A stretch of 64,000 nucleotides of DNA from Candidatus Eiseniibacteriota bacterium. GTDB lineage: Bacteria > Eisenbacteria > RBG-16-71-46 > JABDJR01. Of this stretch, positions 22,322 to 45,683 are shown one piece after another. Under the pieces are notes generated by a model that searched no databases, was not told the origin of the DNA, and saw only the letters and a program-made list of their open reading frames with translations. Both the position numbers and the translations under genes were made by a program. The stretch spans positions 437,840 to 501,839 of the forward strand of contig CAVSKL010000004.1 of NCBI GenBank assembly GCA_963728475.1, in the 5' to 3' direction. Within the stretch, counting starts at the first letter, position 1; each line of letters begins with the position of its first letter.

Positions 22322-23971
22322 ATGGCGACCCAGACCCTCGAAGCGCACGTTTCCCCGGCGGGGAAGAGCTACCTGGACGTGACCCACGGCCTCAAGTCGT
22401 GGCTCTTCACCCTGGACCACAAACGCATCGGGATCATGTATCTGTGCGCGATCAGCACGTCGTTCCTTCTGGGCGGGATCATGGCGTTGTTGATCCGGCT
22501 GGAGCTGTTCCTGCCGGGGCGGACCATCATGTCCGCCCAGACCTACAACGAGGTGTTCACGCTCCACGGGATCATCATGATCTTCCTGTTCATCATCCCG
22601 TCGATCCCGGCGGCGCTGGGGAACTTCTTCCTGCCGATCATGATCGGGGCCAAGGACGTGGCCTTTCCCCGGCTCAACCTGGCCAGCTTCTACCTGTGGT
22701 GCACGGGGGCGGTGTTCACCCTCACCGCCATCCTCACCGGAGGGATCGATACCGGCTGGACCTTCTACACCCCCTACAGCGTGCAGACCCATACCTCGGT
22801 GATCTGGATGGGGCTGGGGATCTTCATCCTGGGGTTCTCCTCCATCTTCACCGGGCTCAACTTCATCGTCACCATCCACAAGCTCCGGATGCCGGGGATG
22901 GGGTGGTTCGACATGCCGCTCTTCCTGTGGTCGATCTACGGCACCGCCCTCATCCAGGTGCTGGCCACCCCGGTGCTGGGCATCACCCTTCTCCTCCTGG
23001 TGGCGGAGCGGGTGCTCCACGTGGGGATATTCGATCCCGCCCTGGGGGGCGACCCGGTTCTCTTCCAGCACTTCTTCTGGTTCTACTCCCATCCCGCGGT
23101 CTACATCATGATCCTGCCGGGAATGGGAATCATGAGCGAGATCGTCACCACCTTCAGCCGCCGGCACATTTTCGGGTACCGGTTCGTGGCGCTTTCCTCG
23201 CTCGCCATCGCGGTGCTGGGGTTCCTGGTGTGGGGGCACCACATGTTCGTGAGCGGCCAGTCCGAGGTCGCCACCATGATGTTCTCGTTCCTCACCTTCT
23301 TCGTGGCCATTCCCTCCGCGATCAAGATGTTCAACTGGACCGCGACCATGTACAAGGGGTCGATCGCCCTGGACACCCCCATGCTCTACGCGCTGGCCTT
23401 CCTCTTCCTGTTCTCGATCGGGGGGCTGACCGGCATCTTCCTGGGCGCTCTCTCGGTGGATGTTCACCTGACTGACACCTACTTCGTGGTCGCTCACTTC
23501 CACTACGTGATGATGGGAGGGACGGTGATGGCGTTCCTGGCCGGCCTCCACTACTGGTGGCCGAAGATGACCGGCCGCATGTACCCGGAGACGGTGGGCC
23601 GGATGACCGCCATCATCATCTTCATCGGGTTCAACGTCACCTTCCTCACCCAGTTCGTGCTCGGCTCGCGCGGGATGCCGCGCCGCTACTACGATTACCT
23701 GGAGCAGTTCCAGCCGCTTCACCAGCTCTCCACCTTCGGATCCTGGATCCTCGGCTTCGGCTTCCTGACCATGGTCATCTACCTGATGTACTCGTTGAAG
23801 GCGGGGGAGAAGGCGCCGGCCAACCCCTGGGGATCGCTGGGGATCGAGTGGCGGACGCCCTCCCCGCCCCCGCTGGAGAACTTCGAGGAGGAACCGAGCC
23901 TGGCCTACGGCCCCTACGACTACCAGAAGGTCTACGGCGAAGAGACCGACGAGGCGGTGGCCTCGGTTTGA
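22322..23971 (+). CDS. coxA: cytochrome c oxidase subunit I
   Basis: 12-TM haem-copper oxidase core ([40 protein letters not shown]). Confidence 0.95.
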
Positions 23972-24008
23972 CCGGCCCCGGAGTCCCACCCGAGAGGAAC
24001 GCCCGATC

Positions 24009-24662
24009 ATGAGCACTGTCCCGGAGCGCGTGCCCCACCAGGTCGGGCACCACTATGCCGACGCCGAGCAGGAGTTCACCGCGGCCAAGCTGGGCTTCTG
24101 GCTTTTCCTGGCCACGGAGATCCTCCTGTTCGGCGGACTGTTCGTGGCCTACGTGGTGATGCGGAACCTGTATCCCCACATGTTCCAGATCTCGCACGAG
24201 AACCTGAACCGGGTGATGGGCGGCACCAATACCGTGGTCCTCATCTGCTCCAGCCTCACCATGGCGCTGGCGGTGCGGGCGGCCCAGACCAATCAGCGGA
24301 GGCGGTTGCTCGGCCTGCTCACCGTGACCATCCTCCTGGCCGGGGTCTTCCTGGTGATCAAGTTCTTCGAGTACCGGGTGAAGTTCGAGCACGGGTTGCT
24401 TCCCGGGTTCTGGTACAACCCGCACGAGGCCGGCCAGCCGGTGAACGGCAACATCTTCTTCGCTCTCTACTTCCTCATGACCGGCCTTCACGGGGTCCAC
24501 GTGATCGCGGGGATGGTCGTCATCAGCTGGATCCTGGTACGTTCGGCAAGAGGGGACTTCTCGAGCGAGTACTACACCCCGGTGGAGCTGGTCGGGTTGT
24601 ACTGGCACCTTGTGGACGTGATCTGGATCTACCTCTTCCCGCTCTTCTACCTGATCAAGTAG
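24009..24662 (+). CDS. coxC: cytochrome c oxidase subunit III
   Basis: Subunit III family sequence (FWLFLATEILLFGGLF...GLHGVHVIAG...YWHLVDVIWIYLFPLFYL). Confidence 0.9.
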   Translation: MSTVPERVPHQVGHHYADAEQEFTAAKLGFWLFLATEILLFGGLFVAYVVMRNLYPHMFQISHENLNRVMGGTNTVVLICSSLTMALAVRAAQTNQRRRLLGLLTVTILLAGVFLVIKFFEYRVKFEHGLLPGFWYNPHEAGQPVNGNIFFALYFLMTGLHGVHVIAGMVVISWILVRSARGDFSSEYYTPVELVGLYWHLVDVIWIYLFPLFYLIK

Positions 24663-25271
24663 GTGACCATGAGCCACGCGCATGCCGCCGTCGCCGGCGA
24701 ACACAAGCCCCACGTGCTTCCCCTCCGCATCTATTTCTCGGTGTGGGGAGCGCTCCTGGTCCTGACCTACCTCACCGTGGCCGCCTCCTACCAGGACTTC
24801 GGCACCTGGAATCTGGTGGTGGCGGTGGGGATCGCCACCATCAAGGCGAGCCTGGTCGCGCTGTTCTTCATGCACCTGAAGTACGACGAGCGCTTCAACG
24901 CCCTCATCTTCGTGTCGGCGCTGGCGTTCTTGGGGATCTTCTTCATCCTCACCCTGGCCGATACCTCCGAGCGCGGTTCGGTGGACCCGATCAAGGCCTA
25001 CGAGATCGCCCCGGTCCCGGGCCGGCCCGACCTGGAGAAGCGGCTGGGCCCCGGGGAGCACGGCATGGTGATCGACACCACCGCGGCGGCCTCGGACAGC
25101 GGCAAGGCGGCGGCGGATTCGGCGGGGGCGGCCGGCGGCATGAACCCCGGCGGCGGGAAGCCCGGCGGCGGGAACCCCGGCGTGACGAAGCCCACCGGCG
25201 TGACGAAGCCGGGCGGGGCGGGGAACCGGGGGGCGGCGGCCGACTCCGGAGGGGCGTCCCCGGGCCACTGA
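24663..25271 (+). CDS. caa3-type cytochrome c oxidase subunit IV with Gly/Pro-rich C-terminal tail
   Basis: ~100-aa subunit IV core (HVLPLRIYFSVWGALLVLTYLTV...IKASLVALFFMHLKYDERF...FFILTLAD), followed by a low-complexity extension. Confidence 0.8.
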   Translation: MTMSHAHAAVAGEHKPHVLPLRIYFSVWGALLVLTYLTVAASYQDFGTWNLVVAVGIATIKASLVALFFMHLKYDERFNALIFVSALAFLGIFFILTLADTSERGSVDPIKAYEIAPVPGRPDLEKRLGPGEHGMVIDTTAAASDSGKAAADSAGAAGGMNPGGGKPGGGNPGVTKPTGVTKPGGAGNRGAAADSGGASPGH

Positions 25272-25321
25272 ACCCGGCGGCCGGTACGGGGACCGCGACG
25301 CGGACCCCACGCGAGGCGACC

Positions 25322-26566
25322 ATGAACGCGGAAATCCTCACCGTGGGCGCGGAGATCCTGGCCGGGGATATCCTCGACACCAACGCCCGCGATCTCGCCC
25401 GGGCCCTCAAGGGCCTGGGCGTCGTCGTCTCCCGGCATGCGAGCGTGCCCGACCACGTGGAGCGGATCGCGGAGGCGGTCCGCGAGGCGGCGTCCCGGGC
25501 CGAGGTGGTGGTGGTGACCGGCGGGCTCGGGCCCACCCCCGACGACGTGACCCGCGAGGGGGTGGCGCGGGCCTTCGGGCTGGGGCAGTCGGTCCGGGAG
25601 GAACTGGTGGAGCCGCTCCGTGCCCGGTACCGGAGCCACGGCTTCCGCGAGATGCCCGAGGTCAATCTGGTCCAGCTCAACCTTCCCGAGGGCTCGGAAC
25701 CGATCCCCAACCCGGTGGGCACCGCCCCCGGGTTCCTCCTGGAGCGCGAGGGGACGGCGCTGTTCGCGGTGCCCGGGGTGCCCCGGGAGATGCAGATGAT
25801 GCTGGAGGAGACGATCATCCCCTGGCTCCGGGCCCATCGCCCCCTTCGCGCACTCCTCACCCGTACGCTCAAGACCCAGGGGATTGGGGAGTCGGAACTG
25901 GTCACCCGCTACGGGGCGATCTTCGACTCGCTCGAGGGGGTGGACCTGGCCTTCTATCCCCAGCAGCCCGGGGTAAACCTCAAGCTCACCGTGCTCGCCG
26001 ACGACCCGGAGCGCGCGCGGGCGCGGTTGAAGGCGGCGGAGGGAGTGCTTCGCGAGCGCCTGGAGGACTACGTCTACGGGACCGACGCCGACACCCTGCC
26101 CGGGGTGGTGCTGGAACTCCTGCGGGCCCGGGGCTGGCGGGCCGGCACCGCCGAGTCGTGCACCGGGGGCGCGGTGGCCGCGTACCTGATCTCGGTCCCC
26201 GGCGCCAGCGACGTCATGGACCGGGGGGTGGTGGCCTACTCCAACCGGGCCAAGACCGAACTCCTGGGGGTGCCGGAAGCGCTGATCGCCGGGCACGGCG
26301 CGGTGAGCGAGCCGGTGGCCCGGGCGATGGCCGAGGGGCTCCGCGAGCGGAGCGGGGTGGAGGTGGCGGTCGCCACCACCGGGATCGCGGGGCCGGCGGG
26401 CGGGACCGCGGAGAAGCCGGTGGGCCTGGTTCACGGCGCGGTGGCCACCCCGGGCGGGACGAAGACCTTTCGTTCGGTGTACCCTGGGACCCGTGACATG
26501 GTCATCCACCGTTCGGTGGTGAACGTCGTGAACCGCCTCCGCCTGGTCCTGATCGGCGCCCGCTGA
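25322..26566 (+). CDS. cinA: competence/damage-inducible protein CinA (MoCF-binding N-domain plus NMN-deamidase C-domain)
   Basis: N-terminal ILTVGAEILAGDILDTNA and C-terminal TAESCTGG signature. Confidence 0.9.
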   Translation: MNAEILTVGAEILAGDILDTNARDLARALKGLGVVVSRHASVPDHVERIAEAVREAASRAEVVVVTGGLGPTPDDVTREGVARAFGLGQSVREELVEPLRARYRSHGFREMPEVNLVQLNLPEGSEPIPNPVGTAPGFLLEREGTALFAVPGVPREMQMMLEETIIPWLRAHRPLRALLTRTLKTQGIGESELVTRYGAIFDSLEGVDLAFYPQQPGVNLKLTVLADDPERARARLKAAEGVLRERLEDYVYGTDADTLPGVVLELLRARGWRAGTAESCTGGAVAAYLISVPGASDVMDRGVVAYSNRAKTELLGVPEALIAGHGAVSEPVARAMAEGLRERSGVEVAVATTGIAGPAGGTAEKPVGLVHGAVATPGGTKTFRSVYPGTRDMVIHRSVVNVVNRLRLVLIGAR

Positions 26567-26661
26567 TCCGGGACCTCTCCCGCCCGGCGGCGCCCGTGCT
26601 CGATCACCCGCCCGGGCGCACGGACGAAGGCGGCGGTTCGCAGGACCGGAGGAACCGACCC

Positions 26662-27096
26662 ATGAACGACAGCCCCGTCACTCCCGACGAATACCGCCGG
26701 CGCCTGGCCGCGGTCTGCCTTTCCGGCGGCGGACCCGGCCTGCCGCGCAAGCCCCGCGACCGCCACATCCTCTTTCGCGCGGTGGCGGCGGCGCTCGACG
26801 CCGCCCGCCTCCACACCGAGCGCGAGATCGACGAGGCGCTCCAGGCCTGGCTAGAGGGACCCGGAGAGCTTCTCGAATTGGACCGGGTGAGCCTCCGGCG
26901 GGAGATGGTGGACGCGGGGTACCTGGAGCGCGATCCCGCCGGCCGCGAATACCGGGTGGTGCGGACGGGTTCGGGGGTGGTGACCTTCGAGCCGGGGGTG
27001 GAGGGGGTGGACCCCGCCGCCGCCCTCGAGGAGGCCCGCGCCGACGCCGAGCGGCGGCGCCTCGCCGCGACGGGACGGCCCGGAAGAGCCCGGTGA
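26662..27096 (+). CDS. DUF2087-like hypothetical protein
   Basis: ~145 aa with a motif pattern (RKPRDRHILFRAVAAALD...EREIDEALQAW) typical of DUF2087. The stop overlaps the next start. Confidence 0.5.
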   Translation: MNDSPVTPDEYRRRLAAVCLSGGGPGLPRKPRDRHILFRAVAAALDAARLHTEREIDEALQAWLEGPGELLELDRVSLRREMVDAGYLERDPAGREYRVVRTGSGVVTFEPGVEGVDPAAALEEARADAERRRLAATGRPGRAR

Positions 27097-27665
27097 GCGA
27101 CCTCTATCCCTGGGGCGAGGACCTCCCGGTCCTGGAGACCCGGCGGCTCATTCTGCGCGGGCTGCGCGAAACCGACCTGCCCGCGCTCTTCGCCGTGTTC
27201 TCGGAACCGGAGGTGATGCGCTACTGGAGCAGCACGCCCCACCGCGACCTCGCCGAGACCGCCGGAGTCCTTACCCGGGCCCGGGAGGGATTCGCGGCCC
27301 GGAGCGCGTTCCAGTGGGGAGTGGCGCTCGGTGAGGACGGAACCGCGATCGGAACCTGCACGCTCTTCCGGGTCGAGCCCAAGCACCTCCGGGGCGAGGT
27401 GGGCTACGTTCTCGGCCGTCCCTACTGGGGGAAGGGGATGGCCGGCGAGGCGCTGGCCGCGGTGATCGGGTTTGCGTTCGACGCCCTCGGGCTCCATCGC
27501 CTGGACGCGGACGTGGATCCCCGGAACGCGCGCTCCCTGAAGCTCCTGGAGCGGATGGGGTTCGCGCGCGAAGGCTACCTCCGGGAGAGCTATCGGATCG
27601 GGACCGAGGTCACCGACAGCGTGATCCTGGGCCTTCTTCGCCCCGAATGGCGGGGTCCTCGGTGA
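27093..27665 (+). CDS. GNAT family N-acetyltransferase (RimJ/RimL-like)
   Basis: GNAT fold motifs (LETRRLILRGLRETDLPALF, GYVLGRPYWGKGMAGEA, NARSLKLLERMGF). GTG start overlaps the upstream stop. Confidence 0.8.
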   Translation: MSDLYPWGEDLPVLETRRLILRGLRETDLPALFAVFSEPEVMRYWSSTPHRDLAETAGVLTRAREGFAARSAFQWGVALGEDGTAIGTCTLFRVEPKHLRGEVGYVLGRPYWGKGMAGEALAAVIGFAFDALGLHRLDADVDPRNARSLKLLERMGFAREGYLRESYRIGTEVTDSVILGLLRPEWRGPR

Positions 27666-28315
27666 ACCGCCCCGGCGGCGCCGCCTCGCTCCGGCGCGAA
27701 GGGCGGCCGGCCGGGGACCCGGCGGGCCCCGGGCCCGAGCGCTGGCGGACCTTCTTGGCGGTGTTCCCTCCGGATCCCGCGCTGGATGCGATCGAGGCCC
27801 TGCGCTCGCGCCTCGAGCCCGGGCTCGACGGCCTCCGCTGGACCGGACGCGCCAACCTCCACTTCACCCTCCGCTTCTTCGGCGACCTCGTCCCGGCCGA
27901 AGCCGCCCGCGCCGGCGAGGTGCTGGCCGCGGTGGCGGCGGGCGTCGTGCCCTTCGATCTGGAGCTGGCCGGGCTGGGGGTGTTTCCCGGCTGGACGCGG
28001 CCGCGCGTCCTGTGGGTGGGCTGCGGCGCCGGCGGGGCGGTCCTCGAGGCCCTGGCCCGCACCCTGGACCGGGGTTTTTGCGACGCGGGCCTGGGCGGCG
28101 CCGACAAGCCCTTCCGGGCCCACCTCACATTGGCCCGGTGGCGCGACCCCCGGGGCGCGGACGGGAAGGCGGCGCGGGCGGCGGTGGAGGGCGCGGACGC
28201 TCCCGCCCGCTTCAGCGTCACCGAGGCGTCGGTCGTCCGGAGCGTCCTGGGCCCCGGAGGCTCCACCTACCTGCCGCTCCGGACCGAGGCCCTGCGGGGG
28301 GCGCCGCCGCGATGA
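27662..28315 (+). CDS. thpR: RNA 2',3'-cyclic phosphodiesterase (2H phosphoesterase, ThpR/LigT family)
   Basis: Two H-x-T-x motifs (HFTLRF and HLTLAR). Start overlaps the upstream stop. Confidence 0.75.
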   Translation: MNRPGGAASLRREGRPAGDPAGPGPERWRTFLAVFPPDPALDAIEALRSRLEPGLDGLRWTGRANLHFTLRFFGDLVPAEAARAGEVLAAVAAGVVPFDLELAGLGVFPGWTRPRVLWVGCGAGGAVLEALARTLDRGFCDAGLGGADKPFRAHLTLARWRDPRGADGKAARAAVEGADAPARFSVTEASVVRSVLGPGGSTYLPLRTEALRGAPPR

Positions 28316-28791
28316 GATGGCCCGTGCTCCCGGCGGCCGGGCTCCTGCTGGCGGCGGTGGGCCTCCTCGCGGTGTGGGCGCGCCGGGCGCCGGCTCCCGG
28401 AAATTTGGGCCTTCACGACGGCCGTCTGAGTCCCTGCCCCGGCTCACCCAACTGCGTTTCGAGCGAGGAGGGGGCGGACGCCGGCCACGCCATGCCGCCC
28501 TGGACCTTCGCCGGCGACCCCGGGGAGGCCATGGCCGTGCTGGCCGGGCTGGTGGGCGCGGCCGCGCGCGCCCGGGTGGTGGACACCGCCGCGGGCTATC
28601 TCCACGCGGAGTTCCGCACGCCGGTCATCGGCTTCATCGACGACGTGGAGTTCCGGTTCGACCCCGCCTCGGGGTCGGTCCGGTTCCGCTCCGCGTCCCG
28701 CCTGGGGTATTCGGACCTGGGGGTGAACCGGAGGCGCATGGACGCGCTGGGCCGGCGCTTCCTCCGGAGCCGCTCCGCGGGAGAGGACTGA
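28312..28791 (+). CDS. DUF1499 family protein
   Basis: N-terminal hydrophobic anchor and a CPGSPNCVSS motif typical of DUF1499. ATG overlaps the thpR stop (ATGA). Confidence 0.6.
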   Translation: MRWPVLPAAGLLLAAVGLLAVWARRAPAPGNLGLHDGRLSPCPGSPNCVSSEEGADAGHAMPPWTFAGDPGEAMAVLAGLVGAAARARVVDTAAGYLHAEFRTPVIGFIDDVEFRFDPASGSVRFRSASRLGYSDLGVNRRRMDALGRRFLRSRSAGED

Positions 28792-28863
28792 CCGGGCGCG
28801 GCCGCCGGATCCCGGAGCCGGGCTGCGGACCGGCCGCCGCATTCGAGGAGGGAGGCGCAATCG

Positions 28864-29565
28864 ATGGCGGACCTGGCCCCGGTCTACCGCGACAAGTCGC
28901 GCTCGACCGGCACCAAGACGGCTCTCGCCCTGATCCACTTCGGGATCGTGCTGGGCACGCTCTGGCTCCTCTTCGGGGGCGGACTGGCCCGGATCGAGGA
29001 TCTGTTCGGGGCGCCGCCCGCGCCCGGCGTGCCGCTCCGGCGGGCGCTCCTGGCGGGGGCGGCGGCGCTCTACTTCCTGCGCACCCTGGCCACGGTGTTC
29101 GTGTTCGTCAAGCGGCGCATGCCGTGGCCGGAGGTGGCCACCATCGCCCCCTGGATCGCGCTCCTGGACGCGCTCTTCGCCTGGTTCGGAGGGCGGAACC
29201 CGGCGCCGGTGGGCGCGCTCGGCGGGGCGGGGGCGGCGCTGGTGCTGGCCGGGTCGGCGCTCAACACCGGTTCCGAATGGCAGCGGCTGGTATGGAAAAG
29301 GCGGCCGGAGAACCGGGGGCACCTCCTCACCGGAGGCTTCTTCCGGATCTCCCGCCACGTGAACTACCTCGGCGATCTGGTGTTGTTCACGGGTTGGGTG
29401 CTGATCGCCGGGCGGCCGTGGCTGCTGTCGGTTCCGGCGGTGATGCTGGCCGGATTCGCCTTCGCCAACATCCCCGCCCAGGACCGGTACCTGGCCGAAC
29501 GCTACGGCGACGAGTACCGCGCCTACGCCGAGCGCACGGCGCGGCTCGTTCCCTTCGTGTACTGA
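28864..29565 (+). CDS. membrane methyltransferase, isoprenylcysteine carboxyl methyltransferase (ICMT)/DUF1295-like
   Basis: Multi-TM protein with the C-terminal ICMT-like motif RHVNYLGDLV...E.RY..EY..Y. Confidence 0.65.
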   Translation: MADLAPVYRDKSRSTGTKTALALIHFGIVLGTLWLLFGGGLARIEDLFGAPPAPGVPLRRALLAGAAALYFLRTLATVFVFVKRRMPWPEVATIAPWIALLDALFAWFGGRNPAPVGALGGAGAALVLAGSALNTGSEWQRLVWKRRPENRGHLLTGGFFRISRHVNYLGDLVLFTGWVLIAGRPWLLSVPAVMLAGFAFANIPAQDRYLAERYGDEYRAYAERTARLVPFVY

Positions 29566-29580
29566 CGGCCTTCGTGCCGC

Positions 29581-31461
29581 CTACACCAGGTCCTTCAGGG
29601 TGAGCGCGACCTCCCGCGAGGCGCCGTCCCGCGCCACCGTGAGCTGGATCACCGTACCCGGGGCCTCGGTCCGGAAGCGGGAACGCAGCTCGAGCAGCGT
29701 CTTGTCCCCGACCGGCCGCCCGTCCACCGCGGTGATGCGGTCGCCCGCGGCCAGGCCCGAGGCCTCGGCGGGGCCGCCGGCGGTCACGTCCATCACCCGG
29801 AGCCCGTCGCCGTCCCGGTTCAGCCACATCCCGGAGCGGTCGTAGACTTCGCGGGCGGGCGCGGCGGGATTCGGCTCGAAGTAGATCGTGAGCCCGCCGT
29901 AGTCGAAGGTGAGGTTGAACCGCGCCAGCACCCCCGCGCCCACGTTCCCGGCGGCGTAGGCGTCGGTGAAGGCGCCCTTGGTCTGGGCGGTAAGATCGAG
30001 CACCGGGCCCGGCACCGGCACCGCGCCCAGCTTAAGCTCCCCGCCCCGGGCCAAGCTCCCGCGGGCGGGTCCGCCCACCCCCCAGCCGGTCACCGCGGTG
30101 TACCGGGGAGCGTACTTGGCCGCCAGGCCGTGTTTGTCCACGAAGGGGGCGAGCAGCGTCACCGAGGCCCGGCTTCCGGTGTCCAGGTCGAACTTCCCCG
30201 GCACCCCGTCGATGGAGCCTTCCACCTGGGGGATGGTGCCGTTGAACACGAACGGGACCGCGGTCCCCGGTCCGTCGTAGTGGAACGCCTCCGGCACGGT
30301 GAGGGTGAGGGTGCTCTTCTCGTAGTCCACCCGGACCACGAACCGCTTGAACACCTCGTAGCCCACCAGCCCCAGCATGGGGACCCCCTCCACGTCGGAG
30401 TAGGACTCGAGCGGGAACACCGCGAAGATCTGGTCGTGCAGGGTGACGCCGCCCAGGGAGAGCGAATCCACCTTCACCATCCCCACGTCCACCGAGCCCT
30501 CACCGGCGCCCTTCCCCTGGAACGCGCCCTGGGGCTCGAGCCCCAGCTCCCCGGCCAGGGTGGGGGTGATCACGTTGGAGCCCCCGGTGTCGCAGAGGAT
30601 GCGGTAGGGCCCCTTGCCGTTCAGGCGCACGTCGATGTAGATGTGCCGGTTCAGGAACTTGAAGGGGACGGTGGCCGAGGTCGCGCCGCCGGCCAGGGTG
30701 AAGTCGGGAGGAGGCGGCGCCGGCGCGGAGAAGACGGCGGGGTCGAACCCGGCGTTCACCGCCACCGAGTCCACGGTCACGAACTGGTCGTAACGGGAGT
30801 CGCCGTTGGTGGAGCGGATGGAGTGGGGGATGAGGATTCCGCCCACCTTCCGGTAGTCGGAAAAGAACACGGCGCGGGTCTCGGTGGCCCCCCTCTCCAC
30901 CGTGCGATCGAAGGTCCAGGTGCCGGTGTCCACCCAGAGATCGAAGGGCCGGCCGCCGGCGGGGGTGAAACCGATCACCCGGAAGGTCCGCCCGTCGTGG
31001 GTGGAGTCGCCGCGGTCCACCACCGAGGCCGCCCCCCGGTCGGGGTACCACCACGCGTGGGCGTTCCGGAACGCCTCGTCCATCGCCCCCTCGCGGGCGT
31101 CGTCGCCGTTCTCGATCTGGACCTGGCCGGAGGCGTCCCGGGCCCACAGGGTGTCGCCGTCGAAGCCCTCGGCCCCGTGAATCGGGCCCAGCTCGAAGCG
31201 CGACACGTAGCGTCCGCTCACCACGTCGATCCAGGTCTCCGCGGTTCCGGAAAGGCCGCCGACCTTGACCGAGGACTCGACCCGGGTGTTCCGCACCCCG
31301 TCCCAGGCGCCGCCGCCCAGGGCTTCCTTGGCCCGGGCGAGAACCTGCTCGACGGGGATCGCGGCGTGGGCGGGGGGGGCGGCGAGGGCGGCAAGGGCGG
31401 CGAGGGCGGCGAGGGCGGCAAGGGCGGCGAGGGCGGCGATCAGCGGGAAACGGCGGGTCAC
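29581..31461 (-). CDS. secreted retropepsin-like (two Asp-protease halves) protease with C-terminal PDZ domain
   Basis: Signal peptide with an (AAL)n repeat. Two D-T-G sites (ILCDTGGSNV and FDLDTGSRAS) and a C-terminal PDZ (GLAAGDRITAVDGRPV). Confidence 0.8.
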   Translation of the reverse strand: MTRRFPLIAALAALAALAALAALAALAAPPAHAAIPVEQVLARAKEALGGGAWDGVRNTRVESSVKVGGLSGTAETWIDVVSGRYVSRFELGPIHGAEGFDGDTLWARDASGQVQIENGDDAREGAMDEAFRNAHAWWYPDRGAASVVDRGDSTHDGRTFRVIGFTPAGGRPFDLWVDTGTWTFDRTVERGATETRAVFFSDYRKVGGILIPHSIRSTNGDSRYDQFVTVDSVAVNAGFDPAVFSAPAPPPPDFTLAGGATSATVPFKFLNRHIYIDVRLNGKGPYRILCDTGGSNVITPTLAGELGLEPQGAFQGKGAGEGSVDVGMVKVDSLSLGGVTLHDQIFAVFPLESYSDVEGVPMLGLVGYEVFKRFVVRVDYEKSTLTLTVPEAFHYDGPGTAVPFVFNGTIPQVEGSIDGVPGKFDLDTGSRASVTLLAPFVDKHGLAAKYAPRYTAVTGWGVGGPARGSLARGGELKLGAVPVPGPVLDLTAQTKGAFTDAYAAGNVGAGVLARFNLTFDYGGLTIYFEPNPAAPAREVYDRSGMWLNRDGDGLRVMDVTAGGPAEASGLAAGDRITAVDGRPVGDKTLLELRSRFRTEAPGTVIQLTVARDGASREVALTLKDLV

Positions 31462-31549
31462 GGGCGGCTCCTCCTGTCGGGTCCGGTGGGGGTCGGGGTT
31501 CCGGGAAACAATACGGCTTCGCGCCTTGCGGAGTGGGGAAAATCGGCGG

Positions 31550-33052
31550 TCACAGGACCTCGGTCGAGCCCACCGTCGCCGGGACCGTGCCCCGGTAGCG
31601 GTAGAGCCCGCGCACGAGCCGGACCATCCACGGCCGCTGGAGCCGCACCGGGACCTGGTCCGCCGCCCGGCGCACCCCCAGGCTCCACGCCGGGTAGGGG
31701 AGGACGGTGCGGGAGAGCCGGGACAGGCCCACCCCGTTCCGCATGGCCACCGCCAGCAGCGAGATCGACTCCGAGGCCTCGGGGCCGACCACGCAGGCCC
31801 CCAGGATCTTTCCCCCCGCCAGCCCGAACCAGCGAACCGGCGACGCGTAGACCCGCACGAAGCCGGCGTCGCTCCCTTCCGCCACCGCCCGGTCGATCTT
31901 CCCCGCCGGCACGTGGATGGTCTCGAATCGCGCGCCCGCCCGGCGAAGCTCCTCCGCGGTCCGTCCCACGTGTCCCACCCCGGGATCGGTGAAGGTGGTC
32001 CAGGGCACGGCCCGGGTCTCGTACCGCACCAGCGGCAGACCGAACACCGCGTTCACCGCGGCGGCGCGGGCCATGTCGTCGGCGACGTGGGTGAAGTTCA
32101 GAAACGCGGCGGCGTCCCCGGCGGCGTGGATCCCGCGGGCCGAGGTCCGGCCGTGGGCGTCCACCGCGATCCCCTCGGGCCCATACCGCACCCCGGCCCG
32201 CTCCAGGTCCAGCCCGTCCAGGTTCGGCCTCCGTCCCGACGCCACCAGGAGGGCGTCGGCGGCCAGCGTCTCCCGGGGCCCGCCCGCCCCCGACACGACC
32301 TCCAGGCGCAGTCCTTCGGTGCTGCGTTCGACCCGGTGAATCGTGCTGTCGAGTAACAGGGTTACGCCGTCTTCTTCGAGTCGTTTCTGCAAGATCGCGG
32401 AGGCCTCGGGCTCGTCGCGGGGGAGCACCCGGGCGCCCCGCGCCACCACCGTGACCCGCGACCCCAGGGATGCGAACGCCTGGGCCAGCTCCATCCCCTG
32501 GGGGCCGGCGCCCAGGACCACCAGGCGGCCGGGGAGCACGGTGAGCTCGAACACGCTTTCGTTGGTGAGGTAGCCGGAGCCCGCCAGGCCGGGGATGTCG
32601 GGAACGCGGGGAGCGCTCCCGGTGGCGATTACCGCCCGGCGAAAACGTAGCGTCCGCTCGCCGCCGGGGCCGGTCGCGACCAGCGTGCGGGGGCCGGTGA
32701 ACCGGGCGGCGCCGTGGATCACCGCGACCCCGCGCCGGGCCAGAATGGGCTCCGCGTCGGACTCGGCGTACACCCGTTGGCGGACGCCGCGCACCGCTTC
32801 CAGGACCTTCGGGAAGTCCACCGAGACCTCGGCCCGGATGCCGCGGGCGGCCAGGCGGCGCGCCGACGCCGCGCCCCTTGCCGCGTGGAGGAGCGCCTTG
32901 GAGGGGATGCAGCCGGTCCAGGTGCAGTCGCCCCCCAGCCGCGCGCGCTCCACCAGGACGGTGCGGGCGCCGAAGGAAGCGGCCACCCCGGACGCGGTGA
33001 GCCCGGCCGCTCCGCCTCCGATCACCGCCACGTCCACGTCTTCCGGGTGCAT
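31550..33052 (-). CDS. FAD-dependent pyridine nucleotide-disulfide oxidoreductase (Lpd/MerA/GR family)
   Basis: Rossmann GxGxxG (VAVIGGGAAG), redox disulfide GGDCTWTGCIPSK, and a second NAD(P) fold (LVVLGAGPQG). The start was set at ATG 33052. The tool's longer ORF extension is antisense to recA. Confidence 0.8.
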   Translation of the reverse strand: MHPEDVDVAVIGGGAAGLTASGVAASFGARTVLVERARLGGDCTWTGCIPSKALLHAARGAASARRLAARGIRAEVSVDFPKVLEAVRGVRQRVYAESDAEPILARRGVAVIHGAARFTGPRTLVATGPGGERTLRFRRAVIATGSAPRVPDIPGLAGSGYLTNESVFELTVLPGRLVVLGAGPQGMELAQAFASLGSRVTVVARGARVLPRDEPEASAILQKRLEEDGVTLLLDSTIHRVERSTEGLRLEVVSGAGGPRETLAADALLVASGRRPNLDGLDLERAGVRYGPEGIAVDAHGRTSARGIHAAGDAAAFLNFTHVADDMARAAAVNAVFGLPLVRYETRAVPWTTFTDPGVGHVGRTAEELRRAGARFETIHVPAGKIDRAVAEGSDAGFVRVYASPVRWFGLAGGKILGACVVGPEASESISLLAVAMRNGVGLSRLSRTVLPYPAWSLGVRRAADQVPVRLQRPWMVRLVRGLYRYRGTVPATVGSTEVL

Positions 33053-33325
33053 GCGCTCTCCTTTCGCCGGCCGGTCCGGGGGATGGTACCGGCGGGAGGC
33101 CGGGATGCCCAGGAGGGACGCCCGCCCGGGTCCGCCCGAATCCCGGTTGACACCGCCGGGGTGGTCCCGTAGCTTAGGAACTCCCGTCAGCGATTTGCGT
33201 TCACCCGACTTCTCCCACCCACAATCGCACGCCCCGTCCGGTGCGCGGCCCGTCCATAGGCACGCCCGTCGAGGAGTACGATCATGACCCAAGCGGCCCC
33301 GCGCGGCACGAAGGTGGACCAAGGC

Positions 33326-34417
<1,092 letters not shown>

Positions 34418-34526
34418 CCGGCCCCTCCGTCGTCGCGACCGACCGTGCGAAGCGAACCCCCCCGGGTTCGCTTTCGCGTCGTACCCCGCCGGCACGGGGT
34501 CTCACCCCGCCGGGCGAGTTCCGACC

Positions 34527-35024
34527 GTGACCGGCGACGAACGCGATCCCGAGGCGCGCGCGCGGGAGATCGTGCTCGCGGCCCTGGAGCGCCGCATGCA
34601 GAGCCGGCGCGAGCTGGAGCTGAAGCTCCGCCGGAAGGGGATCGCCGACGCCGTCGCCGCCGCGGTGCTGGACCGGCTGACCGAGGTGGGGCTCGTCGAC
34701 GACGCGGCCTTCGCCCGGGCCCTGGTCGCCTCGCGCCAGCGGACCCGCCCCCGGGGCCGGCGCGGGCTCGAGTCCGACCTCGTCGCCAAGGGGGTGGCCC
34801 GCGAGGTGATCGACCGCGTGCTGGACGAGCGCGAGGAGGAGGAGGACGTCGTGGCCGCGGCCCGGCGCGCGGTGGCGGCCAAGCTCCGCGCCCTGGCCGG
34901 CAAGCCCCGGCCCGAGGCGCGGCGGAAGGCCGAGCAGTTCCTGCTGCGCCGCGGATTCGACTACGAGACGGTGAGGCGGGCGCTGGATCTGGATCTCCCC
35001 GCGGACGACCCGGGAGCCGATTGA
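34527..35024 (+). CDS. recX: recombination regulator RecX
   Basis: ~165 aa helical-repeat protein immediately downstream of recA, with a GTG start. Confidence 0.75.
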   Translation: MTGDERDPEARAREIVLAALERRMQSRRELELKLRRKGIADAVAAAVLDRLTEVGLVDDAAFARALVASRQRTRPRGRRGLESDLVAKGVAREVIDRVLDEREEEEDVVAAARRAVAAKLRALAGKPRPEARRKAEQFLLRRGFDYETVRRALDLDLPADDPGAD

Positions 35025-35035
35025 CCCCCCGCGCC

Positions 35036-35935
35036 CTATTTCTTCTCGAACACGAACCGATAGTGGTCGAACAGCTCGCGCTCAAAGGCGATCGCGTTGG
35101 CGCTGATCCCGGAGGTGAACGCGTGGCGGAAATCCGGGTTGAAGAGATAGCGCGGCAAGAGCGAGAGCCTGAGCAGGGCCTTTCGCGGAGTGAGTTTTCC
35201 GAAGCGCCGCCGCCATTCCGCGATCGTGGGGATGTAATCGAGCCGGCCGCTCTCCTTATAGACCAGCTTGAAGTGGGCGGCGGCGTTCCGCTCGACCTGT
35301 TCGTGCCCGTAGGGAAGCCACGAGCCGGGGAAGGTCTTCTGGAGGAGGGCCAGGACGTGCGCGTCGGAGAGGCGTGGCGCCCGGATGTCGATCTCCTCGT
35401 AGGGAATCATGTTGCGACCGAAGACCATGGTCTGGAGAAAGAACCGGCCGCCCGGCGGAATGAGCTGGGCGGCGTGGTTGAAGACCTTGGCGTAGATCTC
35501 GTCCTGCCGGCCGGCCCGCCATTCTCCGATCGAACAGAAGTGCTCGAATGCGCCGAGGCTCACGATGCCGTCGAAGGTGCCGAAGGTCTGGGGCGTCACC
35601 TCGCGCGCGTCCTGGAGGCGCACGTCGAAGCCGTGGCGTTCGCAGGCTTCGAGCTGCCCTCGGGAGAGGGTGACGCCCACCCCGGTGACGCCCTTCTCGC
35701 GGAAGAAGTTGAGCGTCGCGCCCCAGCCGCAGCCAAGGTCGATGATCCGGTCCCCGGGCTTCACGTTCAAGTATTGCCAGATGAGCTCGTGCTTCTTCCG
35801 CTGCGCCTGCTCGAGGGTGAGCGAGGTGTCGCCGTCATACTTGGCGCCGCTGAAATCCCCCAGCTCGCCGATACTGAGCCGGAAGATCTTGTCGATGAGG
35901 GTGTAGGTGAAGTCGAGATCTTTCTGCGACGCCAT
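35036..35935 (-). CDS. cyclopropane-fatty-acyl-phospholipid synthase-like SAM-dependent methyltransferase
   Basis: SAM-binding motif IIDLGCGWG and CFA-synthase family architecture. Visibly lower GC and a Lys/Ile/Phe/Tyr-rich composition unlike its neighbours. Confidence 0.8.
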   Translation of the reverse strand: MASQKDLDFTYTLIDKIFRLSIGELGDFSGAKYDGDTSLTLEQAQRKKHELIWQYLNVKPGDRIIDLGCGWGATLNFFREKGVTGVGVTLSRGQLEACERHGFDVRLQDAREVTPQTFGTFDGIVSLGAFEHFCSIGEWRAGRQDEIYAKVFNHAAQLIPPGGRFFLQTMVFGRNMIPYEEIDIRAPRLSDAHVLALLQKTFPGSWLPYGHEQVERNAAAHFKLVYKESGRLDYIPTIAEWRRRFGKLTPRKALLRLSLLPRYLFNPDFRHAFTSGISANAIAFERELFDHYRFVFEKK

Positions 35936-36165
35936 TCCGGTTCCGTCCTCCGGTGATGTTCGCAGACTATCGGGGCGGCCGCCCTCCGTCCAGGGTGCAG
36001 GAGCCGCGGCGGGGGGGGAGTTCGGGATCCACCGGTAACGCCGCGATCGCGGCCAGCGGACCGGCGCCGCCGTGCCTTGACATGGTTCCCGCGAGCCACG
36101 ACACTAGCCGGGTTTTCGGCTCCCGTTCTCGCAGGATTCTCCTCATCTCCGATCGGTCGGTATCC

Positions 36166-43506: not shown

Positions 43507-45504
43507 TCAGGGGCCGGTGGTGTCCGGCTTCGCTGCCCCCGCGCCGGTGCTGTCCGCCGCGCCCGCCTTCCGCAGCGGCCGCTTCACGTAGCGGAGGATC
43601 TTGAGCGACCGGCCGTTCTCCACCGGCTGGAACCGCGCCACCGTGGGGAGGATCGACTCCAGGAGCGCCGGCGTCCGGGCGAGGTCCTCGGACGAGACCA
43701 CGAAGGCCAGCGGATGCGGCGCCACCGCCACCGCCACGCTGTCGAGGAGCGCCAACGGATCGTGCCCCCGCTGGAACCGGTCGAGAAGCGTCCGCCGCGC
43801 CCCGACCTCGGAGCGGACCGCGGGATCGCCTTCCGGCACCGACGCCGTCACCGCCATGGGCGGGCCCAGGAACGCCGCGCGCGGGAGATACATCTGCTCC
43901 TCGCTCACCGGGCGTGGGGTGAGGGGATAGAGGAGCACGGTGTCGAGCGGGAGCGCCGCGTCGGCCCGGACCAGCATCTCCTTCTCCTCGCCGGTCCAGC
44001 GGGTGGCGCCCGAGGTGTCCCGCCGGGCCGCCGGGATCATCGCGACCGGGGTCGCCAGGAGCGCCGCCGCCGTGATCCCGGCGATCGCCGCTCCGGCGGG
44101 GCGCCGGGCCAGGCGCTCCAGGCCGAGGGCGATCGGGACGCCGAGCACCGCGAGCGCGGCCCAGGCCAGCCCCGAGGCTCCCGCCCCCAGGCCGGGGAGC
44201 GCGAACGCCGCCACCGCCGCGGTTCCGGCCGCGGCCAGCCAGCCCCGGCGGCCGCGCAGCACTCCCCCCGCCACCGCCGCGCCGGCGAGGAGCGGCGCCA
44301 GCGACCAGAGGAGCGCGGCCGGCGGCGACGGCGCCCGGGTGAGCAGGAGGAAGTCGGGGAGCCGGGAGAGGTCGCCGCCTCCGGCCAGGAGCAGGGTGGG
44401 GAGCGCCCCCACCGCCGCCACCAGGAGGGCCAGCGCGGTCTCGGCGAACCCGCTCCGGCCGGCGGCGCCCAGGCGCCACGCCCCCCAGAGCAACGTCCCC
44501 GTCCCTCCCACCAGCGGCTGGAAGAGGACCGCGCCCGCGAGGAGCACGCCCAGGACGGGGGCCCGGAGCCGGAAGCGCGGCCCGGCGGCGACCGAACCCG
44601 CCGCGACCAGGAGCGCCGCCGTCCAGGGGAGCGGTCCCGCCCCCCAGGCCATGGGAAGGAGTCCGGAGAGGACCGGGTCGCCGTGTCCGAAGGCGATCAT
44701 GGCCCGGAGGAGCCGCGGATCGTGAAGCGGGGGGAGCGGCCCCGCCGGTCCATGGCCCGGAGCCACCAGGCCGAGCAGGGTGATCCCCCCGGCCGCCACC
44801 GCGGGGAACGCGGCCTGGGCCCACCCCCCGCCGCCGGCGCGCGCGGTCCACCGCAGGCCGGCCAGGAGGAGCGCTCCCACCGCCGCCAGCTGCAGAAGGA
44901 CCAGGAAGAGCGGGCCGGGAACTCCGGTGGCCGCCCACACCGGGGCCAGTGCGGCGGCGAACGCCCAGGGGCGCCCGAAGGGGGTGCCGGCCAGGAACGG
45001 GTTCGCCGGAGGCAGGGCGCCGCCCCGGAGTTCCCCGAGAAGGGGAAGCAGGAGGCCGGCGCCGGCCCGGGTCCAGAGGGTGGGGTTGAGGAGCAGCGGC
45101 AGCGCGGCCAGGGCCAGGACCGCGGCCAGCGCGACCAGGCCCGGGCGGGAGAGCGGGGCCTCGGGCGGGGACGCGGGCGCCCCGGGTTCGGGCGCGCCCT
45201 CCGCGAACGCCCAGAAACCGGCCCAGAGCGACACCGCGAGCCGGGCGGCGGCCACCGCGCTTCCGGTCAGTTCGGCGGCGGGCCAGCTCAGCGCCGCGAC
45301 CAGGAGTGGGGAGAGCGCCAGCGCCGAGCCCCACGAGCACCGGTGGCCGAAGCGGACGAGGAGGCTCCGGCCCGGAAGGAGCAGCGCGGCGGGGAGGACG
45401 GTGACGAGCTTCACCACCCACGGCATCCCGGGCACCCAGATCGCGGCCAGGAGCAGGAACACCAGACCCCAGCGCACCGCGCCGGTCACGCTTCGCATCC
45501 GCAT
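43507..45504 (-). CDS. large polytopic membrane protein (glycosyltransferase-39/ArnT-like or DUF2079-like), function unknown
   Basis: ~660 aa that are highly hydrophobic, with many TM helices and a C-terminal soluble domain. The start is set at ATG 45504, which has a GGAGG RBS. The longer tool ORF has a non-membrane N-terminal extension. Confidence 0.55.
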   Translation of the reverse strand: MRMRSVTGAVRWGLVFLLLAAIWVPGMPWVVKLVTVLPAALLLPGRSLLVRFGHRCSWGSALALSPLLVAALSWPAAELTGSAVAAARLAVSLWAGFWAFAEGAPEPGAPASPPEAPLSRPGLVALAAVLALAALPLLLNPTLWTRAGAGLLLPLLGELRGGALPPANPFLAGTPFGRPWAFAAALAPVWAATGVPGPLFLVLLQLAAVGALLLAGLRWTARAGGGGWAQAAFPAVAAGGITLLGLVAPGHGPAGPLPPLHDPRLLRAMIAFGHGDPVLSGLLPMAWGAGPLPWTAALLVAAGSVAAGPRFRLRAPVLGVLLAGAVLFQPLVGGTGTLLWGAWRLGAAGRSGFAETALALLVAAVGALPTLLLAGGGDLSRLPDFLLLTRAPSPPAALLWSLAPLLAGAAVAGGVLRGRRGWLAAAGTAAVAAFALPGLGAGASGLAWAALAVLGVPIALGLERLARRPAGAAIAGITAAALLATPVAMIPAARRDTSGATRWTGEEKEMLVRADAALPLDTVLLYPLTPRPVSEEQMYLPRAAFLGPPMAVTASVPEGDPAVRSEVGARRTLLDRFQRGHDPLALLDSVAVAVAPHPLAFVVSSEDLARTPALLESILPTVARFQPVENGRSLKILRYVKRPLRKAGAADSTGAGAAKPDTTGP

Positions 45505-45683
45505 CCCACCTCCGGCGGGTCCGCTGTCCGGGCCCCGCGCCGGAGAGCGGAGGTCCGGTCGGCCGGCGCCGGCGTCTAGCACGGACGGCGCCGGGCCCGG
45601 GGGAGTGTAGCAGCCCGCCCGAGGTCCGGTCCCGCCAAGTCTGCGTCCGCGCCGTCCGGCGCAACCGGCCGCGTTGACCCGAG

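Follow-up and report, generated by a model that had tools for sequence, protein, structure and literature searches.

The window, a stretch of 64,000 nucleotides from a Candidatus Eiseniibacteriota genome, carries on its + strand a run of genes that begins, 50 nt after the cox operon, with cinA (25322-26566). The CinA protein (414 aa) combines MoCF_biosynth/COG1058, CinA_KH and CinA/PncC domains (Pfam CinA, 170.5 bits; MoCF_biosynth, 133.8 bits; NCBIfam NF001813, 379.1 against a cut-off of 379). An intergenic region of 95 nt (26567-26661, + strand), in which we found no Rfam match, separates cinA from the gene of a stand-alone DUF2087 protein of 144 aa with a predicted winged-helix fold (26662-27096, + strand). 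A preliminary description of this DNA had placed the start of the DUF2087 gene at the GTG at 26596. The most likely start is instead the ATG at 26662, which has a GGAGG about 9 nt upstream and yields a product identical to the 144-aa protein of the public record (P0001). Three more genes follow on the + strand: a GNAT N-acetyltransferase of the RimJ/RimL type (27093-27665, 190 aa), the RNA 2',3'-cyclic phosphodiesterase of the 2H family thpR/ligT (27662-28315, 217 aa from a GTG, or 27647-28315, 222 aa from an ATG) and a DUF1499 protein (28312-28791, 159 aa). cinA and thpR are on the same strand, two genes apart.

The four domain assignments proposed earlier all scored above the curated cut-offs when checked with HMMs: DUF2087 (PF09860, 54 against 22.4), GNAT (Acetyltransf_3, PF13302, 125.8 bits against 25.4), ThpR (TIGR02258, 110.4 against 65.7; LigT_PEase, 81.2 against 23.3; 2_5_RNA_ligase2 was also matched) and DUF1499 (PF07386, 124.7 bits against 22.6). 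ThpR has both catalytic H-x-T-x motifs (HFTL at residue 67 and HLTL at residue 154) and is homologous to the solved ThpR/LigT proteins of E. coli (5ldi, 4qak) and Thermus (1iuh) and to 5h7e. It differs from these in that some 30-35 extra N-terminal residues precede the conserved domain. This extension is common to three of the related loci described below (L002, L003 and L069), and its V-x-R-P...RRE-x-R pattern recurs in L002 and L003. The cluster does not resemble a dedicated RNA-repair operon of the RtcBA or Pnkp-Hen1 type, because no RNA ligase, kinase-phosphatase or methyltransferase partner domain was found in the proteins of the cluster.

The DUF1499 protein is predicted to be membrane-anchored or exported: its N-terminal residues 1-24 form a hydrophobic anchor or signal, and such a segment is also present in 95 of 120 DUF1499 homologues. 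Its AF2 model (pLDDT 93.8) consists of a transmembrane helix and an alpha-beta4-alpha domain, and its fold matches were all weak, KA1-like ones. By hydropathy, ThpR, GNAT and DUF2087 have no membrane-protein-type hydrophobic segment. A fifth gene (28864-29565, + strand), with GAGGAGGGAGG upstream of its start, lies 72 nt beyond the end of DUF1499 at 28791, a gap that the preliminary description gave correctly. It encodes a polytopic membrane protein of the DUF1295/PEMT superfamily (233 aa, at least four hydrophobic segments). Of the earlier label, an ICMT-like membrane methyltransferase, the membrane protein stands and PEMT lies just above its cut-off (27.5 against 25), but ICMT falls below (PF04140, 20.4 against 24; NF040696, 28 against 160) and the best label is DUF1295 (60.7 against 20.4). 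Two minus-strand genes come next, an Asp_protease_2 and PDZ secreted protein (29581-31461), which is convergent with the cluster and a window-specific insert, and a pyridine nucleotide-disulphide oxidoreductase (31550-33100, 5' end approximate; Pyr_redox_2, 197.6 bits). They are followed on the + strand by recA (33284-34417; PF00154, 446.8 bits) and recX (34500-35024, start approximate; RecX_HTH1/2/3 domains in the ORF 34074-35024, from its residue 163). Both cinA, directly upstream, and recA-recX, downstream, had previously been overlooked.

The sequence junctions bear out the reported gene order and overlaps from DUF2087 to DUF1499. The stop TGA of DUF2087 (27094-27096) lies on the start GTG of the GNAT gene (27093-27095; GTGA), the stop TGA of the GNAT gene (27663-27665) on an in-frame start GTG of thpR (27662-27664; GTGA), and the stop TGA of thpR (28313-28315) on the start ATG of DUF1499 (28312-28314; ATGA). 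The public gene call uses the alternative in-frame ATG of thpR at 27647, which gives an overlap of 19 nt with the GNAT gene. From 27662 up to the conserved domain of ThpR, the reading frame offers no further start codon, and the GNAT/thpR overlap is therefore obligatory. The third-position GC of the called frames (0.87-0.93) supports coding. Such a dense run, with three 4-nt overlaps in succession, is not typical of the rest of the window: of 23 other pairs of same-strand neighbours, by a crude count, just 2 have a start available at -4. A simple scan found no + strand terminator-like hairpin inside the cluster, though in this phylum neither terminator nor promoter scans carry much weight. The four genes are probably co-transcribed, with probable translational coupling of those that overlap.

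To place the cluster in context, we compared a thin sample of six genomes in the clade, that is the window and five related loci (L002, L003, L008, L069 and L072, with Candidatus Eisenbacteria MAGs among them), and 12 more distant thpR loci from metagenomes, many of them short. L002, L008 and L069 have the order cox-cinA-DUF2087-thpR-DUF1499-(Pyr_redox, minus strand)-recA-recX, L003 has DUF2087-thpR-recA-recX, and L072 has cinA-DUF2087-thpR. DUF2087-thpR is therefore found in 5 of 5 related loci, and DUF1499 also in 3 of 5 (L002, L008 and L069; it does not follow thpR in L003). The position of cinA is the same in L002, L008, L069 and L072, and the oxidoreductase between DUF1499 and recA has orthologues in L002, L008 and L069. 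In the spacer between cinA and DUF2087, L002, L008 and L072 have a -10-like element (TGGCATACT) that is not evident in the window. The GNAT, DUF1295 and Asp-protease/PDZ genes were absent from all five related loci (tblastn). The DUF2087|thpR junction reads [AG]TGA in every relative, so that the two genes are start/stop-overlapped in five genomes without the GNAT gene, and the sequence past the GNAT|thpR junction of the window matches that past the DUF2087|thpR junction of L002 and L003. The more distant loci have cinA-thpR-recA-recX or thpR-recA without extra genes; for instance, the compact cinA-thpR-recA(-recX) occurs in L052, L053 and L055, and thpR-recA in L058 and L062. DUF2087-thpR(-DUF1499) is a conserved sub-module in a narrow clade, and the DUF1295 gene lies outside the conserved block.

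One may ask whether the genes are simply juxtaposed by accident, with separate promoters, no functional co-expression, and overlaps that are by-products of a high-GC genome. Relatives differ in which genes they carry here, and spacing in L002 is loose, with gaps of 77 and 43 nt in the public gene calls. However, three consecutive obligatory overlaps leave no promoter room between the genes, the window thpR lacks any other start beyond its overlap, and the DUF2087-thpR order is kept in six genomes, which makes accidental juxtaposition very unlikely.

A cinA-ligT-recA cluster or operon is known in Deinococcus (PMC6300522), and the cluster is known in Deinococcus/Thermus and in some deltaproteobacteria (PMC3680494). 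The window has the same three genes in the same order and on the same strand (CinA COG1058 plus PncC, 2H-family LigT/ThpR, and RecA). It differs in that its block is split, with DUF2087 and GNAT between cinA and thpR, and with DUF1499, DUF1295 and two convergent genes between thpR and recA. The window recA is about 5 kb from thpR, past the two convergent genes, and not immediately downstream of it. It is preceded by a promoter-like block (33145-33190, + strand) made up of GGTTGACA, 17 nt, TAGCTT and then GGAACTCCCGTCAG. This block (TTGACA) is conserved in an alignment of the window with L002, L003, L008 and L069, and both of its motifs are unique in the window. Because recA has its own conserved promoter block, the locus is not one polycistronic cinA-ligT-recA unit. 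The classical LexA-box pattern was not found in 23000-35500. Since cinA immediately precedes the four genes and recA-recX follow at a distance of about 5 kb, the locus is a derived variant of the published cluster: the cinA-thpR-recA neighbourhood is known, and the extra genes elaborate it locally. We consider it likely that an uncultured high-GC bacterium, Candidatus Eisenbacteria-like by its nearest relatives, here has its own version of the conserved cinA-thpR(ligT)-recA-recX neighbourhood and that the GNAT is a passenger, not a pathway partner. In our reading, the arrangement reflects ordinary operon compaction and a lineage-specific gain or loss of the GNAT gene.

The preliminary description had instead proposed a four-gene pathway, not described before, that would pair the GNAT with the RNA 2',3'-cyclic phosphodiesterase. 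Such a lineage-specific pathway would have recruited the GNAT to DUF2087-ThpR-DUF1499 to act on the same substrate, for example by joining acetylation to the processing of RNA 2',3'-cyclic phosphate or ADP-ribose-derived ends. The GNAT gene fits exactly between its neighbours, overlapping each by 4 nt in a way that keeps the coupling from DUF2087 through DUF1499, and the density of overlaps relative to the window base rate and the lack of + strand terminator-like hairpins in the cluster point the same way. Nevertheless, among the loci sampled no second genome has the quartet or a GNAT beside thpR: the quartet recurs in none of 5 syntenic relatives, 42 DUF2087 species loci, 12 thpR loci and 4 GNAT contexts. 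For the quartet, this is the outcome that the preliminary description had itself named as refuting its proposal. What does recur, in L002, L008 and L069, is DUF2087-thpR-DUF1499 without the GNAT gene. Moreover, DUF1499 is predicted to be membrane-anchored or exported, whereas its three putative partners lack a membrane-type segment.

The GNAT itself is generic. Acetyltransf_3 matches it over the full length, and the solved structures closest to it (TTHA1799, 2z0z; PA3944, 6edd; SpeG; BlmB) belong to the same RimJ/RimL/SpeG-like group, but it is far below all equivalog cut-offs of NCBIfam (RimJ PRK10809, 53.6 against 190; SpeG PRK15130, 49.1 against 218), and no other sampled genome has it at this place in the operon. 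Its homologues number more than 2000, with a best non-self identity of 59% and no close orthologue. The four closest relatives that we checked (55-59% identity) lie in unrelated contexts, and none of the four has thpR, DUF2087 or DUF1499 nearby. The closest one overlaps an unrelated upstream DNA glycosylase gene by the same 4 nt, and therefore such overlaps do not imply partnership. We regard the four-protein pathway as improbable; its apparent novelty rested on the GNAT, which among the genomes sampled occupies this position in the window genome alone.

How the GNAT gene came to be there is a separate question. Because the window branches outside the other five syntenic genomes, a gain in the window lineage and a loss in the sister clade are indistinguishable by parsimony. 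The gene is flanked by two GGTGA start/stop overlaps that form direct repeats 569 nt apart, and an exact deletion between them would yield the junction of the relatives precisely. DUF2087 and GNAT could have been inserted together between cinA and thpR as a regulator-enzyme pair, with the GNAT lost from the sister clade by a GGTGA-repeat deletion; the meaningful pairing would then be DUF2087-GNAT, not GNAT-thpR. One loss is as parsimonious as one gain, and the third-position GC of the two genes is slightly lower (0.88 for DUF2087 and 0.87 for GNAT, against 0.92-0.95 in the neighbours), although this difference is about 2 standard errors and similar values occur in many window genes. A GNAT gene also lies directly downstream of DUF2087 in two other loci (L027 and L021), making 3 of 43 with the window. 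GNATs account for about 1% of genes by our own estimate, so this share is a little above expectation and may reflect a loose DUF2087-GNAT affinity. However, the L027 enzyme shares just 28% identity with the GNAT of the window, compared with up to 59% for GNATs in unrelated contexts, and the one in L021 falls in another subfamily, Acetyltransf_10. DUF2087 is missing from the neighbourhoods of all four closest GNAT relatives that we checked, and in the five genomes without the GNAT its gene still overlaps thpR start to stop. A joint arrival is therefore unlikely, if not negligibly so. GNAT and thpR occurred together in none of the 42 DUF2087-anchored species loci, and a GNAT in none of the 12 thpR-anchored metagenome loci.

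The preliminary description also suggested a toxin-antidote-like module, in which the GNAT would be the toxin and DUF2087 the antidote. In TacA-TacT and AtaR-AtaT, a gene for a small DNA-binding protein overlaps a downstream GNAT toxin gene, and DUF2087, a small DNA-binding-type protein whose gene overlaps the GNAT gene by 4 nt, superficially resembles them. The window differs from the GNAT-RHH type II systems (TacAT, AtaRT and KacAT) in both partners. The best NCBIfam and PDB matches of its GNAT are TlmB/BlmB, RimJ, SpeG, PA3944 and TTHA1799, none of which is a tRNA-acetylating toxin, and the upstream protein is a winged-helix DUF2087 rather than an RHH/DUF1778 antitoxin. The pair is not conserved either, because five relatives keep DUF2087 without the GNAT and the nearest GNAT relatives lack DUF2087. 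No PADLOC-DB match at E<=0.01 was found for the five proteins, and the locus lies within conserved housekeeping synteny (cox, cinA and recA). Together, the GNAT subfamily, the DUF2087 fold, the non-conservation of the pair and the lack of a PADLOC match effectively refute a toxin-antitoxin or defence module.

The literature links DUF2087 to putative regulators and proposes a nucleic-acid-binding role for it (PMC7113386). The domain PF09860 is common to the window protein and BtmL of the bottromycin cluster (PMC7113386), but BtmL joins an N-terminal ArsR/SmtB-like wHTH to a C-terminal DUF2087, whereas the window has the stand-alone form, whose DUF2087 core itself was modelled as a winged helix by structure prediction. 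The stand-alone subfamily comprises 119 clusters at E<=1e-30. Elsewhere DUF2087 precedes very diverse enzymes, with heterogeneous downstream partners and fusions. It is improbable that DUF2087 is a dedicated ThpR partner, as a substrate-targeting subunit or operon-specific regulator, with the GNAT recruited later in the window lineage. If it were, RNA-end or ADP-ribose-derived-phosphate processing at a cinA/recA stress locus would have gained a branch linked to acetylation. In favour of this reading, start/stop overlaps connect DUF2087 to thpR in all six genomes, in the window by way of the GNAT gene.

Under the favoured reading of a local cinA-thpR-recA-recX variant with a passenger GNAT, the clade has a gene for a small stand-alone winged-helix DUF2087 protein between cinA and thpR, usually with a membrane-anchored DUF1499 after thpR. 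In the window genome alone, a RimJ/RimL-type GNAT lies exactly at the DUF2087|thpR junction, and the DUF1295 and Asp-protease/PDZ genes are found between DUF1499 and the pre-recA oxidoreductase. The co-directional genes would be transcribed together. By analogy with its characterised relatives, ThpR would hydrolyse 2',3'-cyclic phosphate ends, while CinA would handle NMN/ADP-ribose. DUF2087, which heads many unrelated enzyme genes elsewhere, may be a generic nucleic-acid-binding or regulatory module, and the GNAT would acetylate some amine substrate independently of ThpR. Transcription of recA, which is 84-86% identical to that of the relatives, would be driven from its own conserved promoter.

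The gene anatomy of the cluster is real. Reading the sequence directly and listing open reading frames in all six frames, we found on the plus strand DUF2087 (26662-27096), the GNAT acetyltransferase gene (27093-27665), thpR (27662 or 27647 to 28315), DUF1499 (28312-28791) and a gene for a DUF1295-type membrane protein (28864-29565). The three start/stop junctions (GTGA, GTGA and ATGA) noted in the preliminary description are present, and its domain assignments all score above curated HMM cut-offs (DUF2087, 54 bits; GNAT, Acetyltransf_3 125.8 bits; thpR, LigT_PEase 81.2 bits and TIGR02258 110.4 bits, with the cut-off at 65.7; DUF1499, 124.7 bits). For the fifth gene the 72-nt gap stands, but the ICMT-like identity does not, because ICMT scores below its cut-off, PEMT just above it and DUF1295 at 60.7 bits; the product is a polytopic membrane protein. 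The start of DUF2087, earlier placed at GTG 26596, is most likely ATG 26662 instead. This ATG has a GGAGG about 9 nt upstream, and the public record carries an identical 144-aa product. If thpR started instead at the in-frame ATG lying 15 nt upstream of 27662, it would overlap GNAT by 19 nt. Because no start codon occurs between 27662 and the conserved domain of thpR, the two genes must overlap to some extent. In the called frames, GC at third positions is 0.87-0.93.

A rough tally shows a possible -4 start in only 2 of the window's 23 other same-strand neighbour pairs, so the triple overlap is denser than the local norm. A simple scan found no plus-strand terminator-like hairpin inside the cluster, and terminator-like matches did not exceed the chance level. 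The promoter scan returned no sigma-70-like promoter in 23500-35500, and Rfam no RNA family within 23000-36000. Co-transcription of the cluster genes is likely. That they are not co-expressed is a reading to which the overlaps are opposed; we consider it very improbable.

The preliminary description missed the context of the cluster. Immediately upstream lies cinA (25322-26566), with the full MoCF/COG1058, KH and PncC architecture, preceded by cytochrome oxidase genes. Downstream of the DUF1295 gene are two convergent genes, encoding an Asp-protease/PDZ protein and a pyridine-nucleotide-disulphide oxidoreductase, and beyond them recA (33284-34417) followed by recX. A cinA-ligT-recA cluster or operon is found in surveyed Deinococcus species, one of them without cinA (PMC6300522), and also in Deinococcus/Thermus and some deltaproteobacteria (PMC3680494), so the cluster sits inside a neighbourhood that has already been described. 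Among the flanking products, the Asp-protease/PDZ protein (29581-31461, minus strand) begins with a repeated AALAALAAL signal-like segment, and the COX4_pro protein (24663-25271, plus strand) ends in a Gly/Pro/Lys-rich low-complexity tail (GGMNPGGGKPGGGNPGVTKPTGVTKPGG).

We think that the cluster is probably a lineage-specific elaboration of this cinA-thpR-recA-recX neighbourhood, with a generic GNAT as passenger. DUF2087 (clade-wide) and DUF1499 (in most of the clade) would accompany thpR, and the GNAT would be a single-genome passenger at the junction of DUF2087 and thpR.

To place the cluster among its relatives, loci were analysed as stop-to-stop ORFs with phmmer, family HMMs and neighbour clustering. 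A homology search anchored on DUF2087 gave 27 relatives, and context look-ups with an alignment scan (one genome per GTDB species) gave 44 DUF2087 loci (about 42 after removal of redundancy), and the closest of those with a name belong to Candidatus Eisenbacteria MAGs. Among these 42 or so loci, thpR adjoins DUF2087 only in the closest relatives. L002, which shares its contig with L007, and L008 both have the order cox-cinA-DUF2087-thpR-DUF1499-(Pyr_redox, minus strand)-recA-recX. L003 has DUF2087-thpR-recA-recX. Of the loci reached through DUF1499, L069 has the gene order of L002, and L070 and L071 carry DUF1499 alone; a further locus, on the short contig L072, has cinA-DUF2087-thpR. When all window proteins were searched with tblastn, GNAT, DUF1295 and Asp-protease/PDZ were absent from the loci of the five syntenic relatives (L002, L003, L008, L069 and L072). 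Anchoring on thpR yielded 12 usable metagenome loci, several of them short, including compact cinA-thpR-recA(-recX) arrangements (L052, L053 and L055) and thpR-recA pairs (L058 and L062); none of the 12 contains GNAT, DUF2087 or DUF1499.

The conserved unit is cinA-DUF2087-thpR(-DUF1499)...recA-recX, confined to one narrow clade. With each gene taken as anchor in turn, the proposed quartet DUF2087-GNAT-thpR-DUF1499 was seen at none of the other loci sampled. A true four-protein pathway would sit well with the tight overlaps and poorly with this distribution; we regard it as decidedly unlikely. Full-text searching of the literature brought up no account of a GNAT plus 2H phosphoesterase system.

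The position of the GNAT is precise. Each of the five relatives has an [AG]TGA in which the stop of DUF2087 overlaps a possible start of thpR. The window encodes V-N-R-P...RRE-G-R just after its junction of GNAT and thpR, and the sequence there matches that following the junction of DUF2087 and thpR in L002 and L003, so the GNAT sits exactly at the ancestral junction. A GGTGA motif stands on either side of it, the two being 569 nt apart. In identity matrices the window falls outside the group of the other five genomes, so parsimony favours neither a gain of the GNAT in the window lineage nor its precise loss in the sister clade. Neither DUF2087 nor GNAT is present in the more distant compact cinA-thpR-recA loci. 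Whether by gain or by loss, the adjacency of GNAT and thpR is a single-lineage state. One form of loss, in which DUF2087 came in jointly with a GNAT that disappeared afterwards, would agree with this tie and with the similar GC3 of the two genes (0.88 and 0.87), slightly lower than that of their neighbours and within the window range; none of the four nearest GNAT relatives looked up has a DUF2087 neighbour, and we judge it unlikely. A compositional signal of recent GNAT acquisition was rejected because the GC3 of the gene is normal for the window.

Judged from sequence, the GNAT is a generic RimJ/RimL/SpeG-like enzyme. It has over 2000 homologues (E<1e-20), and TTHA1799, PA3944, SpeG and BlmB are the structures closest to it; it reaches no NCBIfam equivalog cut-off. 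The four nearest relatives looked up have unrelated gene surroundings. For instance, the closest (59%, the best non-self identity; L063, 4414-5567) shares a 4-nt overlap with an upstream 3-methyladenine DNA glycosylase gene (Pur_DNA_glyco); both lie in a stretch of small, unrelated genes, two of which encode further GNATs. Such overlaps are therefore common in this family.

The DUF2087 protein has a confident predicted structure (pLDDT 91.8), and its sequence profile weakly resembles the Cdc53 WHB domain (E=0.03). Structure searches found winged-helix similarity at fold level and nothing significant at family level. The weak match and the confident model fit the published view of DUF2087 as associated with putative regulators and possibly binding nucleic acids (PMC7113386). 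The stand-alone subfamily of about 140 aa is large, with 1424 clusters at E<=1e-3, falling to 119 at 1e-30. Neighbour clustering of the 42 loci found no broadly conserved partner; downstream genes encode an ADP-ribosylglycohydrolase, HD domain, NAPRTase, DinB_2, ECF sigma factor, esterase, two unrelated GNATs and a transposase. Occasional fusions (P0286, P0342, P0355, P0365, P0408 and P0412) join DUF2087 to RpiB, a class-I methyltransferase, shikimate kinase, a TetR regulator, pterin-4a-carbinolamine dehydratase or an alpha/beta-hydrolase, and could be real or arise where metagenome assemblies read through pairs of overlapping genes. This diversity argues against an RNA-end-specific role and hints at a regulatory or adaptor module of a generic kind.

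Stand-alone DUF2087 genes of other Eisenbacteria and Chloroflexi MAGs immediately precede NAPRTase or ADP-ribosylglycohydrolase, the latter with or without an HD_4 phosphohydrolase (L005/L012, 8001-9951; L011, 10001-11321; L031, 6328-8372). CinA is an NMN deamidase/ADP-ribose pyrophosphatase. Together with CinA and the 2H phosphoesterase in the window's clade, these pairings hint at a loose NAD/ADP-ribose theme around DUF2087, its remaining neighbours being unrelated enzymes. The spacers between cinA and DUF2087 in relatives share a conserved, extended -10-like element, GTGGCATACTGG (L002, 6452-6602; L008, 9831-10000; L072, 260-429), which suggests a putative internal promoter for DUF2087-thpR there; the window's shorter 95-nt spacer has no obvious counterpart.

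ThpR carries both H-x-T-x motifs (HFTL and HLTL), is homologous to solved ThpR/LigT enzymes and is likely to be catalytically competent. The DUF1499 protein (pLDDT 93.8) is modelled as an N-terminal transmembrane helix and an alpha-beta4-alpha domain; the hydrophobic helix, present in 95 of 120 homologues, implies membrane anchoring or export, which would make a stoichiometric cytoplasmic complex with ThpR unlikely. Its sole fold matches are weak (phospholipid-binding KA1/AMPK-alpha C-terminal domains and the BamC N-terminal domain). We found no PDB sequence match or solved structure, and a full-text search returned essentially nothing on the family. An exact-sequence look-up gave no match, although the protein is present in the homology database as P0148. 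A toxin-antitoxin-like module has next to no probability; PADLOC gave no matches for the cluster proteins.

If the cluster is indeed a known neighbourhood with a passenger, it serves mainly as a caution: in a high-GC genome, 4-nt overlaps, however tight, are not enough by themselves to define a pathway, and a gene order seen in one genome should be compared with that of relatives before any function is put forward. What is new is that, in an Eisenbacteria-like clade, the classical cinA-thpR-recA neighbourhood has gained a stand-alone gene for a winged-helix DUF2087 protein and usually also one for a membrane-anchored DUF1499 protein, and that the stand-alone DUF2087 subfamily typically heads, or is fused to, very diverse enzyme genes. 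Neither point touches a long-standing open question. The conserved, start/stop-overlapped DUF2087-thpR pair and the habit of DUF2087 of heading such genes remain a curiosity.

Upstream of recA, a promoter-like block (33145-33190) consists of GGTTGACA, 17 nt, TAGCTT and, directly after it, GGAACTCCCGTCAG. It is kept almost base-for-base in L002, L003, L008 and L069, and a 14-mer of it is unique in the window; the region has no classical LexA-box patterns. Having its own strongly conserved block, recA would receive no read-through from the cluster. In this clade the block may serve recA as an operator or as an element of its 5'-UTR. Elsewhere in the window, a GC/AT-skew anomaly at 44-46 kb (GC 0.78, AT skew 0.34) is unrelated to the cluster: it is due to a 736-aa Ala/Leu/Gly/Pro-rich polytopic membrane ORF (43507-45717, minus strand), after which lies a nucleotidyltransferase-like gene (45684-46829).
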